From assembly GCA_044341565.1 (NCBI GenBank), contig JBIIRM010000003.1, positions 45,187 to 109,186 of the forward strand: a stretch of 64,000 nucleotides of DNA, read 5' to 3'. Numbering within the stretch: the stretch's first letter is position 1; every line of letters begins with the position of its first letter. The notes below the pieces were generated by a model. The model was not told the origin of the DNA, did not search any database, and saw only the letters and a program-made list of their open reading frames with translations. The DNA comes from Minisyncoccia bacterium. GTDB taxonomy: Bacteria; Patescibacteriota; Minisyncoccia; SW-4-49-11. Position numbers and translations under genes: made by a program. Shown one piece after another: positions 10,614 to 14,587 of the stretch.

Positions 10614-12128
10614 ATGTATATGCAAAAAGTTATTGTGATTGGTGGTGGTATTGGTGGGCTGGCGACGGCTTGTATTCTTGCCCGCAAAGGATATGAGGTT
10701 ACTGTATATGAAAAAAATCAAAATCTTGGTGGTAGGGCTAATGTCTTTGAGGCTGAGGGGTTTCGTTTTGACATGGGACCTTCTTGGTATTTGATGCCAG
10801 ATGTGTTTGAGAATTTCTTTGAATTTATGGGAGAAAAAGTTGAGGACCATTTGGAATTGATTCGTCTTTCTCCTTCTTATCGGATATTCTTCAAGGATGA
10901 TAATAAAATTATCGATATGTTCTCTGATTTGGAGCGGGATATTCCTACATTAGAAGAATTAGAACCAGGTTCTGGGGATAAGCTTCGGGAATATTTAGAT
11001 AAGGCCAAACAGCAATATGAAATTGCAAAGGATGGATTTATGTATAAAAATTATAATTCCATTTTTGATTTTATCAATTTCCGCACAATGATCGAGGGAT
11101 CAAAATTATCGGTATTCAGTGATATGGATGCCTATGTGAGTAAATATTTTAAACATCCTTTGGTGAAGAAAATTTTACAATACCCACTTGTTTTCCTGGG
11201 TAGTTCTCCCTATAATACTCCGGCTCTATATAGTATTATGAATCATATTGACTTTAATATGGGGGTATTTTACCCGCAGCGAGGTATGTATACCATTACG
11301 GAGGCTTTGGTGAATATTGCCAAGAAAAATGGCGTGAATTTGGTAAGTGGTAATGGAGTAAAGCAAATTGTTGTTGAGAATGGAAAAGCTGTCGGTGTAG
11401 AGCTAGAGTCTCGAGAAATTGTGAAGGCAGATATCGTTGTGTCTAATGCAGATATGACTCATACTGAGCTCAATTTACTTCCTGCTGCGTCTCGCCAATA
11501 TGATGAGAAATATTGGGATAAAAAGATTCTGGCTCCCTCAGCTTTGATTATGTATCTCGGGGTTAAGGGAAAAGTGGATAGTTTGGTTCATCATAATCTC
11601 TTATTCTCTCAGGATTGGAAGACAAATTTTGAACAAATTTTTGATGACCCAATGTGGCCGGATGACCCATCTATGTATGTATGTGCTCCATCTAAAACTG
11701 ACCCAAATGTAGCCCCAGAAGGGAATGAGAATTTATTCGTATTGGTGCCTATTGCGGCGGGACTTGAGTATACTGAAGATCATCTTGAGTCTTATGCGGA
11801 TAAAACCCTGACTATTATGCAGGAGGAAATGAATATTACTGATTTGAAGGAGAGAATTATCTATAAGAGATTATATAGTGTGAAGAATTTCCAACAAGAT
11901 TATAATGCATATAAGGGTACGGCTTTGGGACTCGCTCATACCATTAATCAAACGGCAATATTCCGGCCTAATAATTATTCTAAAAAGGTAAAAAATTTGT
12001 ATTATGTAGGTGCTGGTACTAATCCTGGTATTGGAGTTCCTATTCAACTTATTAGTGCCGAAATGGTATATAAAAGAATAGCGGGTATTAATCAGGATAG
12101 CCCTCTTAAGGGTGAGGATATTGTATAA
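10614..12128 (+). CDS. crtI: CrtI-family FAD-dependent desaturase/oxidoreductase (phytoene desaturase family)
   Basis: N-terminal dinucleotide fold VIVIGGGIGGLATACILARKGYEVTVYEKN..GGR and C-terminal family signature YYVGAGTNPGIGVP. Length 504 aa. Confidence 0.8.
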   Translation: MYMQKVIVIGGGIGGLATACILARKGYEVTVYEKNQNLGGRANVFEAEGFRFDMGPSWYLMPDVFENFFEFMGEKVEDHLELIRLSPSYRIFFKDDNKIIDMFSDLERDIPTLEELEPGSGDKLREYLDKAKQQYEIAKDGFMYKNYNSIFDFINFRTMIEGSKLSVFSDMDAYVSKYFKHPLVKKILQYPLVFLGSSPYNTPALYSIMNHIDFNMGVFYPQRGMYTITEALVNIAKKNGVNLVSGNGVKQIVVENGKAVGVELESREIVKADIVVSNADMTHTELNLLPAASRQYDEKYWDKKILAPSALIMYLGVKGKVDSLVHHNLLFSQDWKTNFEQIFDDPMWPDDPSMYVCAPSKTDPNVAPEGNENLFVLVPIAAGLEYTEDHLESYADKTLTIMQEEMNITDLKERIIYKRLYSVKNFQQDYNAYKGTALGLAHTINQTAIFRPNNYSKKVKNLYYVGAGTNPGIGVPIQLISAEMVYKRIAGINQDSPLKGEDIV

Positions 12129-12167
12129 ATAAAAAAGCCCCGACGATATAACGAGGCTTGTTTGATG

Positions 12168-12776
12168 TCATCGGAGTGAGGGGAATCCTTTGGATGTCCC
12201 CATCACAATGATGGTGGGAGAGCTCCTCAATCTTTTGATGGGATTGAGGGAAATACCATTTTCATTCCACACTTCGAAATGAAGGTGGATAGGGATGGGA
12301 CGAGTATGGGTTTTGCCCATAGTCCCTATCACCTCGCAGGCAAGTACAATGTCGCCTGGCTTTACCTTGATGGAGCTTAAATGTCCGTAGACACTTTTTT
12401 CTCCACCAACATGGGTGACTCGGACGGCTCCCCAGGAACTTTCCACGCTGGTAACCATTCCAGCTCTCCATGCCATGATGGGCAGTCTCATTGCCTCTGC
12501 ATCCGAGATGGAGGCGGGAGGCGTGAGATCAATTCCCTGATGGGAATGGGAGTGGCGAGGTGCAAGATGCGCCTTGTTTGTCCCCTGGATGGACTCCACG
12601 AGAGAGTCTACAGGGAAACATTCTTGGTCAGCTGGGTCCTGATTCCCCATGAGAGCAATATGTTCTCTGGGAATATTGGCGGGCACCTCATATATGGGGG
12701 AATTTGCCCGTACCATCATTGGGCATATTGCCAAGGCAGTTCCGATAATGGCCGGGATAGCTTTTTGGATTTTCAT
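12168..12776 (-). CDS. secreted M23-family (LytM-type) metallopeptidase
   Basis: Signal peptide MKIQKAIPAIIGTALAICPMMVRA. HQGIDL ... SVYGHLSSIKVKPGDIVLACEVIGTMGKTH..PIHLHFEVW is a classic M23 core. ~50% GC, far above neighbours. Confidence 0.8.
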   Translation of the reverse strand: MKIQKAIPAIIGTALAICPMMVRANSPIYEVPANIPREHIALMGNQDPADQECFPVDSLVESIQGTNKAHLAPRHSHSHQGIDLTPPASISDAEAMRLPIMAWRAGMVTSVESSWGAVRVTHVGGEKSVYGHLSSIKVKPGDIVLACEVIGTMGKTHTRPIPIHLHFEVWNENGISLNPIKRLRSSPTIIVMGTSKGFPSLR

Positions 12777-12887
12777 GGTATCCTCTCCTTCTGAGTGGGA
12801 TAGAATACCACTTCAGATCGAGGGGTTGATTATAGCATAGAAATGCTATTTTGTCAATATATAATAACTATTTTATATAGAGAATAA

Positions 12888-12930
12888 TCCACACCCACCA
12901 CTAACGCGGTTCCCCCTCGTCAGCGAGGGA
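12888..12930 (+). repeat. GC-rich double-hairpin dispersed repeat, copy 2
   Basis: ATCCACACCCACCACTAACGCGGTTCCCCCTCGTCAGCGAGGGACA, ~88% identical to copy 1 at 5654-5697. Confidence 0.8.
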
Positions 12931-12949
12931 CAAAATACAAAGCCAGCTC

Positions 12950-13789
12950 TTATGTATACCAAATCACAATACTCCAAAAAAGGATAAATCCAATAATGGC
13001 GTTAAGCAGGGGGAAATAGGTATATAATTTGAATATTCTGGCGGAATTTTGATTATAGCTAAGACCAATCATAAAGCCATATATAATAGCTATTCCAATT
13101 CCAAGTGGGAGGCTGAATTGAGCTAGTAATATTCCAGATAGGGTATAGCAGATAAAACAATACAAAAGGGTTAATTTTGAGCCAAGTACGGTAGCAATGG
13201 TGGGGGTATTACTGGCTTTGTCAGCTTTAATATCTGGTATGGCTGAATAGGTATGCATTGCCATTGTCCAAAGTCCGGCACTGATGAGGAGGCGATAATC
13301 GAGATTGAGATATAGGGAAAATAAACTATATCCAATAATTCCAGGGAATATATATAATATATTGAATAGGGAATCGAGTAAGGGGCGGGATTTAGCACGA
13401 ATAGGTAATGCAGAATATTGTATGCCAAGGAATAAAAAGCCTAATATTCCCATACTGGTAAGAGGGTTAATGAGATACAGGGCTAGTATAAATGGAATAT
13501 TAGTAGCAAGAATAAAAAGCCAAAGTCTTATGCGTTCCTTAGGGGTGACGAGAGTTTCATATTCTATTTTCTTTGGGTTTAATTTGTCTGTTTCATAATC
13601 AAAAATATCATTGACTCCATATATCAGGAGATTAGCAGGAAAAGTAAAATATACAAATCCAAGCCAAAATTGCCATTGTAATATCAGTTGTGTAGGCTCA
13701 AAAGCAAGTATGCTCCCAATAAGATAAGGCCCAAGGAGATATATCCAAAAACGGGGGCGGGAAATACGCAATAATTTAGCAATACTCAT
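12950..13789 (-). CDS. UbiA-family prenyltransferase (candidate lycopene elongase-type)
   Basis: Polytopic membrane protein with Asp-rich motif NDIFDYETDKLNPKK (NDxxDxxxD) in the first cytoplasmic loop. The lycopene-elongase function is inferred from the CrtI neighbourhood only. Confidence 0.7.
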   Translation of the reverse strand: MSIAKLLRISRPRFWIYLLGPYLIGSILAFEPTQLILQWQFWLGFVYFTFPANLLIYGVNDIFDYETDKLNPKKIEYETLVTPKERIRLWLFILATNIPFILALYLINPLTSMGILGFLFLGIQYSALPIRAKSRPLLDSLFNILYIFPGIIGYSLFSLYLNLDYRLLISAGLWTMAMHTYSAIPDIKADKASNTPTIATVLGSKLTLLYCFICYTLSGILLAQFSLPLGIGIAIIYGFMIGLSYNQNSARIFKLYTYFPLLNAIIGFILFWSIVIWYT

Positions 13790-13825
13790 ATGATATAATG
13801 TAATATACTATTAGTATATCATATG
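13787..13825. promoter_or_regulatory. perfect 11-bp inverted repeat CATATGATATA-N17-TATATCATATG spanning both divergent start codons
   Basis: Each arm contains an extended -10-like element (TGATATAAT / TGATATACT) and ends in the ATG of the flanking gene (12950..13789 minus, 13823..14587 plus). Confidence 0.6.
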
Positions 13826-14587
13826 CAAAAGAGATTATTAGTCATTATCCCGTCTATTATTTTACTTTTGAGTGGGTTTTTTGTGGTATATTTTAGCCTT
13901 AACCCTGAGGCTTTGCCTTTTGATTTTAGGATATTCCAGGCAATTTCACAGCTGACTAATGTATTGCTGGCCATACCGCTTATATATGGTTTATGGCTTT
14001 GGCTTGATTGGAGAGAATCTTGGTGGAAAATTCTGATTATATTCTCATATCCCATTTTAATAGAATCATTTGCGATTATAACTGGTTGGCCATATAGTGA
14101 TTTTGTATATGGGGAATTCCTCGGGAATATTAAATTTTTTGGATTAGTGCCTTGGACAGTGAGTTTATCTTGGGTTCCGATATTTTTCTTGAGCTTTGTA
14201 TTGGTGGAAAAAAGTCCATGGAAATCAATATGGATAAAATCTTTATTGGGTGCAGTTTTGATGACAACTTTTGATTTGGTGCTTGATCCGGGGGCTACGG
14301 CGTTAGGATTCTGGATATGGGAAAGCGGGGGATGGTATTATAATGTTCCTTGGATGAATTTCTTTGGTTGGTTAGTGACAAGCTTGCTTGCTTTTGCAGG
14401 ATTTTATCTCCTCTTTCCACAACATAACAAGTTGGATAATACTATCGTTTATTGGTTGAGCTTATCTGGTATATTGAGTCTCATATTCTGGATTGGGATA
14501 GCAGGCTGGCTTGGGTATTGGTATCTCGTGATAGGGGGTATAGTATATTTAGGATATGTTAGGAGTCAATTATCATTGACTAAATAG
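13823..14587 (+). CDS. Trp-rich polytopic membrane protein, candidate carotenoid-biosynthesis membrane protein (CruF / lycopene-cyclase-domain-like)
   Basis: 6-7 TM segments, many conserved-looking Trp (WLWLDWRESWW, GFWIWESGGWYYNVPW). Divergently coupled to the UbiA gene. The functional call is contextual inference. Confidence 0.4.
   Translation: MQKRLLVIIPSIILLLSGFFVVYFSLNPEALPFDFRIFQAISQLTNVLLAIPLIYGLWLWLDWRESWWKILIIFSYPILIESFAIITGWPYSDFVYGEFLGNIKFFGLVPWTVSLSWVPIFFLSFVLVEKSPWKSIWIKSLLGAVLMTTFDLVLDPGATALGFWIWESGGWYYNVPWMNFFGWLVTSLLAFAGFYLLFPQHNKLDNTIVYWLSLSGILSLIFWIGIAGWLGYWYLVIGGIVYLGYVRSQLSLTK

Follow-up and report, generated by a model that had tools for sequence, protein, structure and literature searches.

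The 64 kb stretch of contig JBIIRM010000003.1 analysed here (hereafter the window) carries a compact gene cluster at positions 10614–14587. By comparison with characterised pathways, this cluster probably encodes the later steps of a C50 carotenoid pathway of the bacterioruberin type, in the genome of a freshwater bacterium of the Parcubacteria, within the Candidate Phyla Radiation (CPR). The cluster encodes a CrtI/CrtD-type carotenoid desaturase, a LyeJ-type lycopene elongase/1,2-hydratase of the UbiA superfamily and a CruF-like carotenoid hydratase, together with an M23 metallopeptidase. The presence of lyeJ, crtD and cruF in Patescibacteria is already known; the distinctive feature of this locus is that the early genes are unlinked to a compact and conserved cluster.

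The substrates, product and physiological role of the trio can be proposed by analogy with known systems. The CrtI/CrtD-type flavoenzyme would convert phytoene to lycopene and later introduce the 3,4 double bonds. The LyeJ-type enzyme would transfer a C5 unit from dimethylallyl diphosphate (DMAPP) onto C-2 of each lycopene end and hydrate the 1,2 bond, and hydration of the newly attached isoprene units would fall to the CruF-like membrane protein. Bacterioruberin, or a closely related C45/C50 carotenoid, would result; in the cell membrane it may protect against light or oxidation and add stiffness. The M23 gene and a small gene 3′ of cruF, termed ORF133, stand outside the pathway as lineage-specific cargo in two variable slots.

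A preliminary description of the window had read the region as a C50-carotenoid-like module with a distant isopentenyl-diphosphate isomerase (IDI) gene. The four open reading frames (ORFs) and the IDI gene lie where it placed them, and the motifs that it quoted (YYVGAGTNPGIGVP, NDIFDYETD and WSNSCCGHP) are all present in the sequence. Its reading was largely right, and the corrections concern novelty in CPR bacteria, the IDI gene, the M23 gene and the actinobacterial comparison.

Families of the three carotenoid enzymes

The desaturase gene (10614–12128, plus strand) encodes 504 aa with a PF01593 domain. The protein scored 510.1 bits with the subfamily model TIGR02734 (cutoff 238.1) and 656.5 bits with the equivalog model NF058655 (cutoff 640), which is defined as 'bifunctional phytoene desaturase/3,4-desaturase CrtID', and the initial assignment to the CrtI family was thereby borne out. 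The N-terminal FAD-binding dinucleotide fold is present at residues 6–19 (VIVIGGGIGGLATA, containing GGGIGG; PF13450, 63.9 bits).

The lyeJ-type gene (12950–13789, minus strand) encodes a protein of 279 aa that matched PF01040 with 75.8 bits and exceeded the cutoff of NF009516 (PRK12875; 250.1 bits, cutoff 205). The models for UbiA, MenA, MqnP and HPT gave at most 34 bits, and NF010119 and NF009608 remained below cutoff. A grouping with non-carotenoid prenyltransferases, which would have undermined the proposed module, was thus not seen (250 bits versus at most 34 bits). NF009516 is labelled merely 'prenyltransferase' at NCBI, and its meaning was calibrated on clusters of named organisms. A tblastn search of a plasmid collection found the gene within annotated crtB-crtI-prenyltransferase-cruF clusters of Halarchaeum and Halocatena, and NF009516 was the top model for the prenyltransferases of the Halarchaeum, Halocatena and Haloarcula terrestris carotenoid clusters (397–456 bits). 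The elongase of the Arthrobacter cluster scored 455 bits with NF009608, for which the window protein reached 138 bits, below cutoff. Because the window enzyme passes NF009516, as the haloarchaeal enzymes do, it belongs to the haloarchaeal LyeJ type and not to the actinobacterial CrtEb type; the earlier comparison with haloarchaeal and actinobacterial elongase pathways therefore holds in its first half only. The Asp-rich motifs N60-D61-x2-D64-x3-D68 and D186-x3-D190, the Mg2+/diphosphate-binding pair expected of LyeJ, are invariant in an alignment of 16 sequences that includes archaeal LyeJ, and the identity to haloarchaeal LyeJ is 36–39%. Both crtI/crtD and cruF neighbour the lyeJ-type gene, in the window as well as on at least 11 related contigs.

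The cruF-like gene (13823–14587, plus strand; 254 aa) is divergent from lyeJ, with a 33-nt gap between them. Its product contains 19 Trp residues and approximately six hydrophobic segments, and matched PF04240 (Caroten_synth) with 117 bits (cutoff 25, E 1.4e-33) over 194 of the 209 profile positions, which confirmed that the Trp-rich membrane protein noticed earlier is a member of a carotenoid family. At the equivalog level, TIGR03460 gave 95.6 bits (cutoff 154.7), NF041333 gave 86.1 bits (cutoff 300) and the cyanobacterial CruF model gave 50.2 bits, the archaeal models scoring higher than the cyanobacterial one. All bacterial cluster CruF-like proteins tested were likewise below cutoff (108–135 bits). 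Twenty residues, including the TG-PY and D..DP.A motifs, are invariant with haloarchaeal CruF.

The closest functional reference is the trio c0507-c0506-c0505 of Haloarcula japonica (CrtI/CrtD, LyeJ and CruF), which converts lycopene to bacterioruberin and whose functions were established genetically (Yang 2015; Yatsunami 2024, PMC11946383). The window shares with it the same three families in a three-gene module without adjacent crtB, the same NCBIfam models passed for CrtID and LyeJ, and the Asp-rich and CruF motifs. The differences are that the haloarchaeal order crtI-lyeJ-cruF is collinear, whereas in the window cruF and lyeJ point away from each other and crtI converges on lyeJ across a cargo slot; that the window CruF lies below the equivalog cutoff; that the window host is a reduced-genome bacterium; and that identity to the proteins of Haloarcula-genome clusters is 47% for CrtI, 36–37% for LyeJ and 33–34% for CruF. 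The bacterioruberin cluster of Arthrobacter (L009) resembles the window in that a UbiA-family lycopene elongase lies in a carotenoid cluster, there with crtI, crtB and idi, but its elongase is of the CrtEb type (NF009608) and is 32% identical to the window enzyme.

The cluster in its host lineage

The host is a freshwater lineage of Parcubacteria (CPR). A protein identical to the window CrtI is encoded on a JGI metagenome contig of 106 kb. The nearest genome record, 'MAG: Parcubacteria group bacterium ZE-Oct18-75' (MAG, metagenome-assembled genome), has a UbiA protein 94% identical to that of the window and the same synteny on a 425 kb contig, and the next-nearest record is a 'Candidatus Parcubacteria' river MAG (UbiA 78%). 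The gene inventory of the window is also CPR-like, comprising aminoacyl-tRNA synthetases, pilins, a non-oxidative pentose phosphate pathway, a VirD4-like ATPase and rhamnose synthesis. The nearest record and this gene content support the reduced-genome, episymbiont setting suggested at the outset.

The arrangement cruF-lyeJ-[slot]-crtI adjoins the valyl-tRNA synthetase (ValRS) gene in the window and on about 11 distinct related contigs, namely, L003/L010, L004, L005/L006, L011, L090, L091–L094, L096 and L126. Synteny with ValRS, 6-phosphogluconate dehydrogenase (6PGD) and rhamnose genes is repeated on contigs of 66–425 kb from independent assemblies in NCBI, JGI, ENA and Logan. Because this gene order recurs across the four sources, mis-binning is not a serious option. 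All copies in the lineage have unbroken carotenoid ORFs. The pairwise ratios of nonsynonymous to synonymous divergence (dN/dS) among lineage members were 0.03–0.06 for crtI, 0.06–0.17 for lyeJ and 0.07–0.15 for cruF, at a synonymous divergence (dS) of 0.36–2.4. The trio is under strong purifying selection, and the substrate must therefore reach the enzymes.

Neighbour-joining trees of UbiA, CrtI and their concatenation placed the lineage in its own clade (100% support) inside the bacterial LyeJ/CrtID group. This clade is separate from those of other CPR bacteria and stands beside Acidobacteriota with weak support (bootstrap 28–37). The GC content at third codon positions (GC3) of the carotenoid genes is 0.31–0.37, compared with about 0.2 in core genes. 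The cluster was likely acquired horizontally long ago, and the trees single out no donor. A scan of IMG/VR returned no relatives.

The preliminary description had called carotenoid elongation machinery unexpected in a minimal episymbiont, which was an overstatement given a prior report from Lake Baikal and the loci in MAGs of Saccharibacteria, Pacebacteria and Magasanikiibacteria. In 2023, lyeJ, crtD and cruF were described in Lake Baikal Patescibacteria, and a cold-adapted membrane role of bacterioruberin was proposed (Haro-Moreno 2023, PMC9948471). Both cases concern CPR bacteria of cold fresh water that carry all three gene families. The difference is that the Lake Baikal genes are scattered over reads, or cruF is far from the other two, whereas the window cluster is compact and conserved across its lineage; the upstream genes are not discussed in that study. 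A survey of freshwater CPR genomes does not mention carotenoids (PMC9166423). Other CPR MAG loci (L028, L029, L043, L035, L062 and L050) share a LyeJ-type UbiA gene convergent with crtI, and NF009516 was passed in L029 and L050; they differ in having polyprenyl synthase and phytoene synthase genes directly 5′ of crtI and in forming separate clades in the trees. The clusters of Acidobacteriota, [cruF-idi fusion]-lyeJ-crtI-crtB, show the highest outside identity (UbiA up to 57%, CrtI 59–62%) and an identical strand arrangement, but their CruF is fused to IDI, their crtB is adjacent and their sister placement is weak.

Two further observations concern the related loci. On the 286 kb metagenome contig L094, the cluster occurs in apparent tandem copies at 7722–13773 (cruF-lyeJ-partial crtI followed by cruF-lyeJ-crtI), which may reflect a true duplication or an assembly artefact caused by strain collapse. 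The clusters of L046 and L047, binned as 'Gammaproteobacteria', are almost identical to those of the CPR MAGs L050 and L062 (Patescibacteria, Magasanikiibacteria), and one of the two sets is probably mis-binned.

Supply of substrate and competing explanations

The position of the early genes was examined across carriers of LyeJ-type genes at 80 genome loci and 80 metagenome loci. A crtB gene sits immediately 5′ of crtI in the majority of Acidobacteriota loci, one Abditibacteriaceae locus out of three, many haloarchaeal loci and six CPR-labelled loci (Saccharibacteria L028, L029 and L043; Pacebacteria L035; Magasanikiibacteria L062; and L050). In these six, a polyprenyl synthase gene precedes crtB, as detected by Pfam in five and by tblastn in L043. 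Since the six loci carry crtE-crtB-crtI and lyeJ, CPR bacteria do encode the route from geranylgeranyl diphosphate. In Haloarcula, Halorubrum, Halosimplex and Haladaptatus, no crtB occurs less than 10 kb from the trio, and a crtB apart from the trio is normal in known bacterioruberin producers.

For the window lineage, two places where crtB might have been retained were considered and rejected. A decayed or hidden crtB beside crtI was sought with tblastn (E up to 10) using ten bacterial CrtB proteins, six of them from CPR-labelled loci, against the window and the lineage loci, and only noise was returned. Pfam searches of the unannotated neighbours detected a nucleotidyltransferase, DUF1653 and a HAD hydrolase, with no SQS_PSY domain. 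Retention of crtB in more basal members of the lineage was likewise dismissed, as none of eight contigs with 75–80% UbiA identity in the metagenome scan carries the gene. A CrtE/IspA-like prenyl diphosphate synthase gene was found beside ValRS in L094 (2765–3682) and L011 (3640–4542) only; the protein scored 433.8 bits with the cyanobacterial CrtE model NF045685 (cutoff 460) and passed the subfamily model for farnesyl diphosphate synthase. The equivalent spot in the window is an intergenic region of 456 nt (18253–18707), patchy in GC and with a strong promoter-like sequence.

The IDI gene (47047–47604, plus strand; 185 aa) is of type 1, as the preliminary description had stated (NF002995, 193.1 bits, cutoff 127; TIGR02150, 126.6 bits), but its inclusion in the carotenoid module found no physical or evolutionary support. 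The gene is located 33 kb from the cluster, among genes for DsbA, thioredoxin reductase, glutaredoxin and AhpC. Its nearest outside homologues are stand-alone IDIs (51–59% identity), compared with 40–49% for the cluster-fused acidobacterial IDIs, and none of its top 120 homologues is a CruF-IDI fusion. Joint acquisition of IDI with the carotenoid cluster was rejected on these grounds. The window IDI may still be the supplier of DMAPP for LyeJ, although the gene serves isoprenoid metabolism in general. Among Acidobacteriota (MAGs of Pyrinomonadaceae and 'Chloracidobacterium'; L012, L013, L015 and others), CruF is fused to a type 1 IDI in proteins of 430–458 aa, and because the CruF of these clusters carries the isomerase, IDI is functionally tied to LyeJ chemistry in general. 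An example of the fusion ORF is located at 6728–8038 of L012, within a lyeJ-crtI-crtB cluster; no paper describing the acidobacterial fusion was found.

Several results weigh against the proposed bacterioruberin-type pathway. The desaturase exceeded the CrtID equivalog cutoff by only 16 bits, whereas haloarchaeal cluster CrtI proteins score 750–754 bits on the same model; none of the three CruF equivalog models was passed by the CruF-like protein; identity to haloarchaeal cluster proteins is just 33–47%; and the deep nodes of the neighbour-joining trees are weak (bootstrap below 60). No crtB or crtE gene or remnant was detected by tblastn (E up to 10) anywhere in the 64 kb window or within the 12–21 kb surrounding the clusters of its relatives; in this respect the lineage differs from most other bacterial loci, where crtB is next to crtI. 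Freshwater Paceibacteria are also reported to be without C5 isoprenoid synthesis and to encode only the C10–C20 isoprenoid steps (PMC9166423). Nevertheless, by analogy with Haloarcula, crtE and crtB most likely sit elsewhere in the genome, and de novo synthesis with an unlinked crtB is the arrangement that we consider likely. A different division of labour, in which the lineage lost crtE and crtB, obtains phytoene or lycopene from the membrane of its host and completes the C50 pigment for its own, is rather unlikely. It would explain why none of the approximately 11 lineage contigs has linked crtB or crtE when both adjoin crtI in the six CPR-labelled loci and in most Acidobacteriota loci, and it agrees with the reported lack of C5 synthesis. 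Purifying selection, which implies an available substrate, is also compatible with such scavenging, as are the scavenging of lipids by CPR bacteria and the uptake of host retinal proposed for Saccharibacteria (PMC9296517). However, an unlinked crtB is frequently seen in proven producers of bacterioruberin, the portion of the genome inspected amounts to only about 70 kb, and a CrtE-like synthase gene lies near the cluster in L094 and L011. A retained CrtI descended from phytoene desaturases is accounted for just as well by de novo synthesis, and no carotenoid uptake system is known.

The end product could also differ from bacterioruberin if the UbiA and CruF-like enzymes had specificities unlike those of LyeJ and CruF, yielding a C45, a non-hydrated C50 or a hydrated C40 carotenoid. 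The sub-cutoff scores of the CruF-like protein, the separation of the bacterial clade from the haloarchaeal clade and the lack of a linked cruF in several CPR loci are in line with this idea, but the three partners occur together in an arrangement found in many bacterial loci, the LyeJ model NF009516 is passed and the conserved residues are common to the archaeal enzymes, which makes another product improbable. Least credible of all is that the genes are a decaying relic, or an artefact of binning or assembly that does not belong to a CPR cell. The elevated GC3 of the carotenoid genes and their mosaic surroundings might suggest so; against this stand the intact ORFs, dN/dS values of at most 0.17 and the same ValRS/6PGD/rhamnose synteny on 66–425 kb contigs from NCBI, JGI, ENA and Logan. 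The late half of a bacterioruberin-type pathway thus remains the preferred interpretation.

Variable slots around the cluster and wider significance

The slot between crtI and lyeJ is occupied in the window by the M23 metallopeptidase gene (12168–12776, minus strand; 202 aa; PF01551, 58.6 bits), with a sigma-70-like consensus promoter on its 5′ side (12829–12857, minus strand; TTGACA-17-TATAAT with a TG extension, 12/12 as a pattern match only). Its GC content of 0.509 (GC3 0.527) contrasts with 0.358 for the whole window and 0.36–0.37 for the carotenoid genes, as the preliminary description had remarked in proposing a foreign insert. The outside donor that this would require did not appear, since only 11 homologues were found in 5.8 billion proteins and all close ones come from the same lineage. 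The L090 copy is in the same slot at 67% amino acid identity (dS 1.26), whereas the flanking carotenoid genes are 93–96% identical, and GC is 0.51 in both copies. A recent foreign origin was therefore rejected for a gene that is lineage-restricted and persistently GC-rich, and PHROG endolysin matches were attributed solely to the generic M23 domain. The slot holds a PIN toxin–antitoxin pair in L003 and L004 and is empty in L005. The M23 gene, specific to the lineage and evolving fast, is cargo of a variable slot, and the region is mosaic as proposed, though not by way of a foreign M23 insertion.

ORF133 (14630–15031, plus strand; GC 0.505, GC3 0.64) occupies the second slot, 3′ of cruF, with which it is probably co-transcribed; a terminator-like hairpin follows at 15079–15096. 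The gene is GC-rich and lineage-restricted with no assigned function. It had no match in Pfam, PHROG or PADLOC, and its family comprised only five cluster representatives in 1.84 billion proteins. A 607-nt block (14476–15082) covering the end of cruF and ORF133 is 100% identical at the nucleotide level to L090, which comes from another sample, whereas the flanks are 85–91% identical; other relatives carry different small ORFs in this slot. The sequence comparison suggests that a small GC-rich cassette was exchanged very recently. In addition, CrtI is closest to L005 (95%), while UbiA is closest to L003 (94%) versus 82% to L005, and the carotenoid genes are 84–85% identical to L003 at the nucleotide level when the adjacent core, which is less diverged, is 92–93% identical. 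The patterns of the M23 gene, the ORF133 block and the L003/L005 identities indicate that populations have recombined around the slots.

Repeats were also observed near the GC-rich genes. A 57-nt direct repeat (84% identity) is found at 5645–5701 and 12878–12934, each copy beside a GC-rich ORF, one at 5792–6391 with weak YkuD-like similarity and the other the M23 gene. A separate repeat of about 170 nt (84–92%) is located at 7094–7267 and 8744–8884 and is present in L090 too. Both may be cassette boundaries or mobile elements. The left end of the window (72–3066) contains a defence-type island that encodes a fragment of a Schlafen-like helicase and an ATPase-TOPRIM nuclease of the OLD/GajA family (PADLOC Old, 87 bits), where the corresponding side in relatives has a nucleotidyltransferase and UvrA instead. 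The Rfam search of the GC-rich patches (E up to 1) gave nothing credible beyond a tRNA-like gene pair. This pair (15198–15261 and 15268–15368, within 15135–15446) has its own 12/12 consensus promoter and two terminators, lies at the same place in relatives and gave a weak, sub-threshold match to YrlA (Y RNA-like). The anticodon of gene 1 varies by genome (Val-GAC, Ala-GGC, Lys-CTT, Leu-GAG and Val-CAC), and in the window its anticodon arm is shrunk to a 3-bp hairpin. Gene 2 forms a cloverleaf without an anticodon, the anticodon stem being capped by a loop of 4–6 nt (UUCG, UACG or similar), and shows compensatory changes at 10 of 21 pairs; the window copy has a 28-nt insertion at this loop.

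LyeJ-type clusters are widespread in bacteria, occurring as uncharacterised loci in Acidobacteriota, Abditibacteria and a number of CPR groups. CPR bacteria are thought to make almost none of their own membranes. A conserved and selected pathway for a membrane-spanning C50 carotenoid would indicate that some of them invest in the tailoring of their envelope. If crtE and crtB are truly absent from the genome, the lineage would provide a clear case of metabolite hand-over from host to episymbiont, with one pathway split between both. In sunlit or cold fresh water, the pigment would most plausibly act against light or oxidative stress, or in the adjustment of membrane rigidity.

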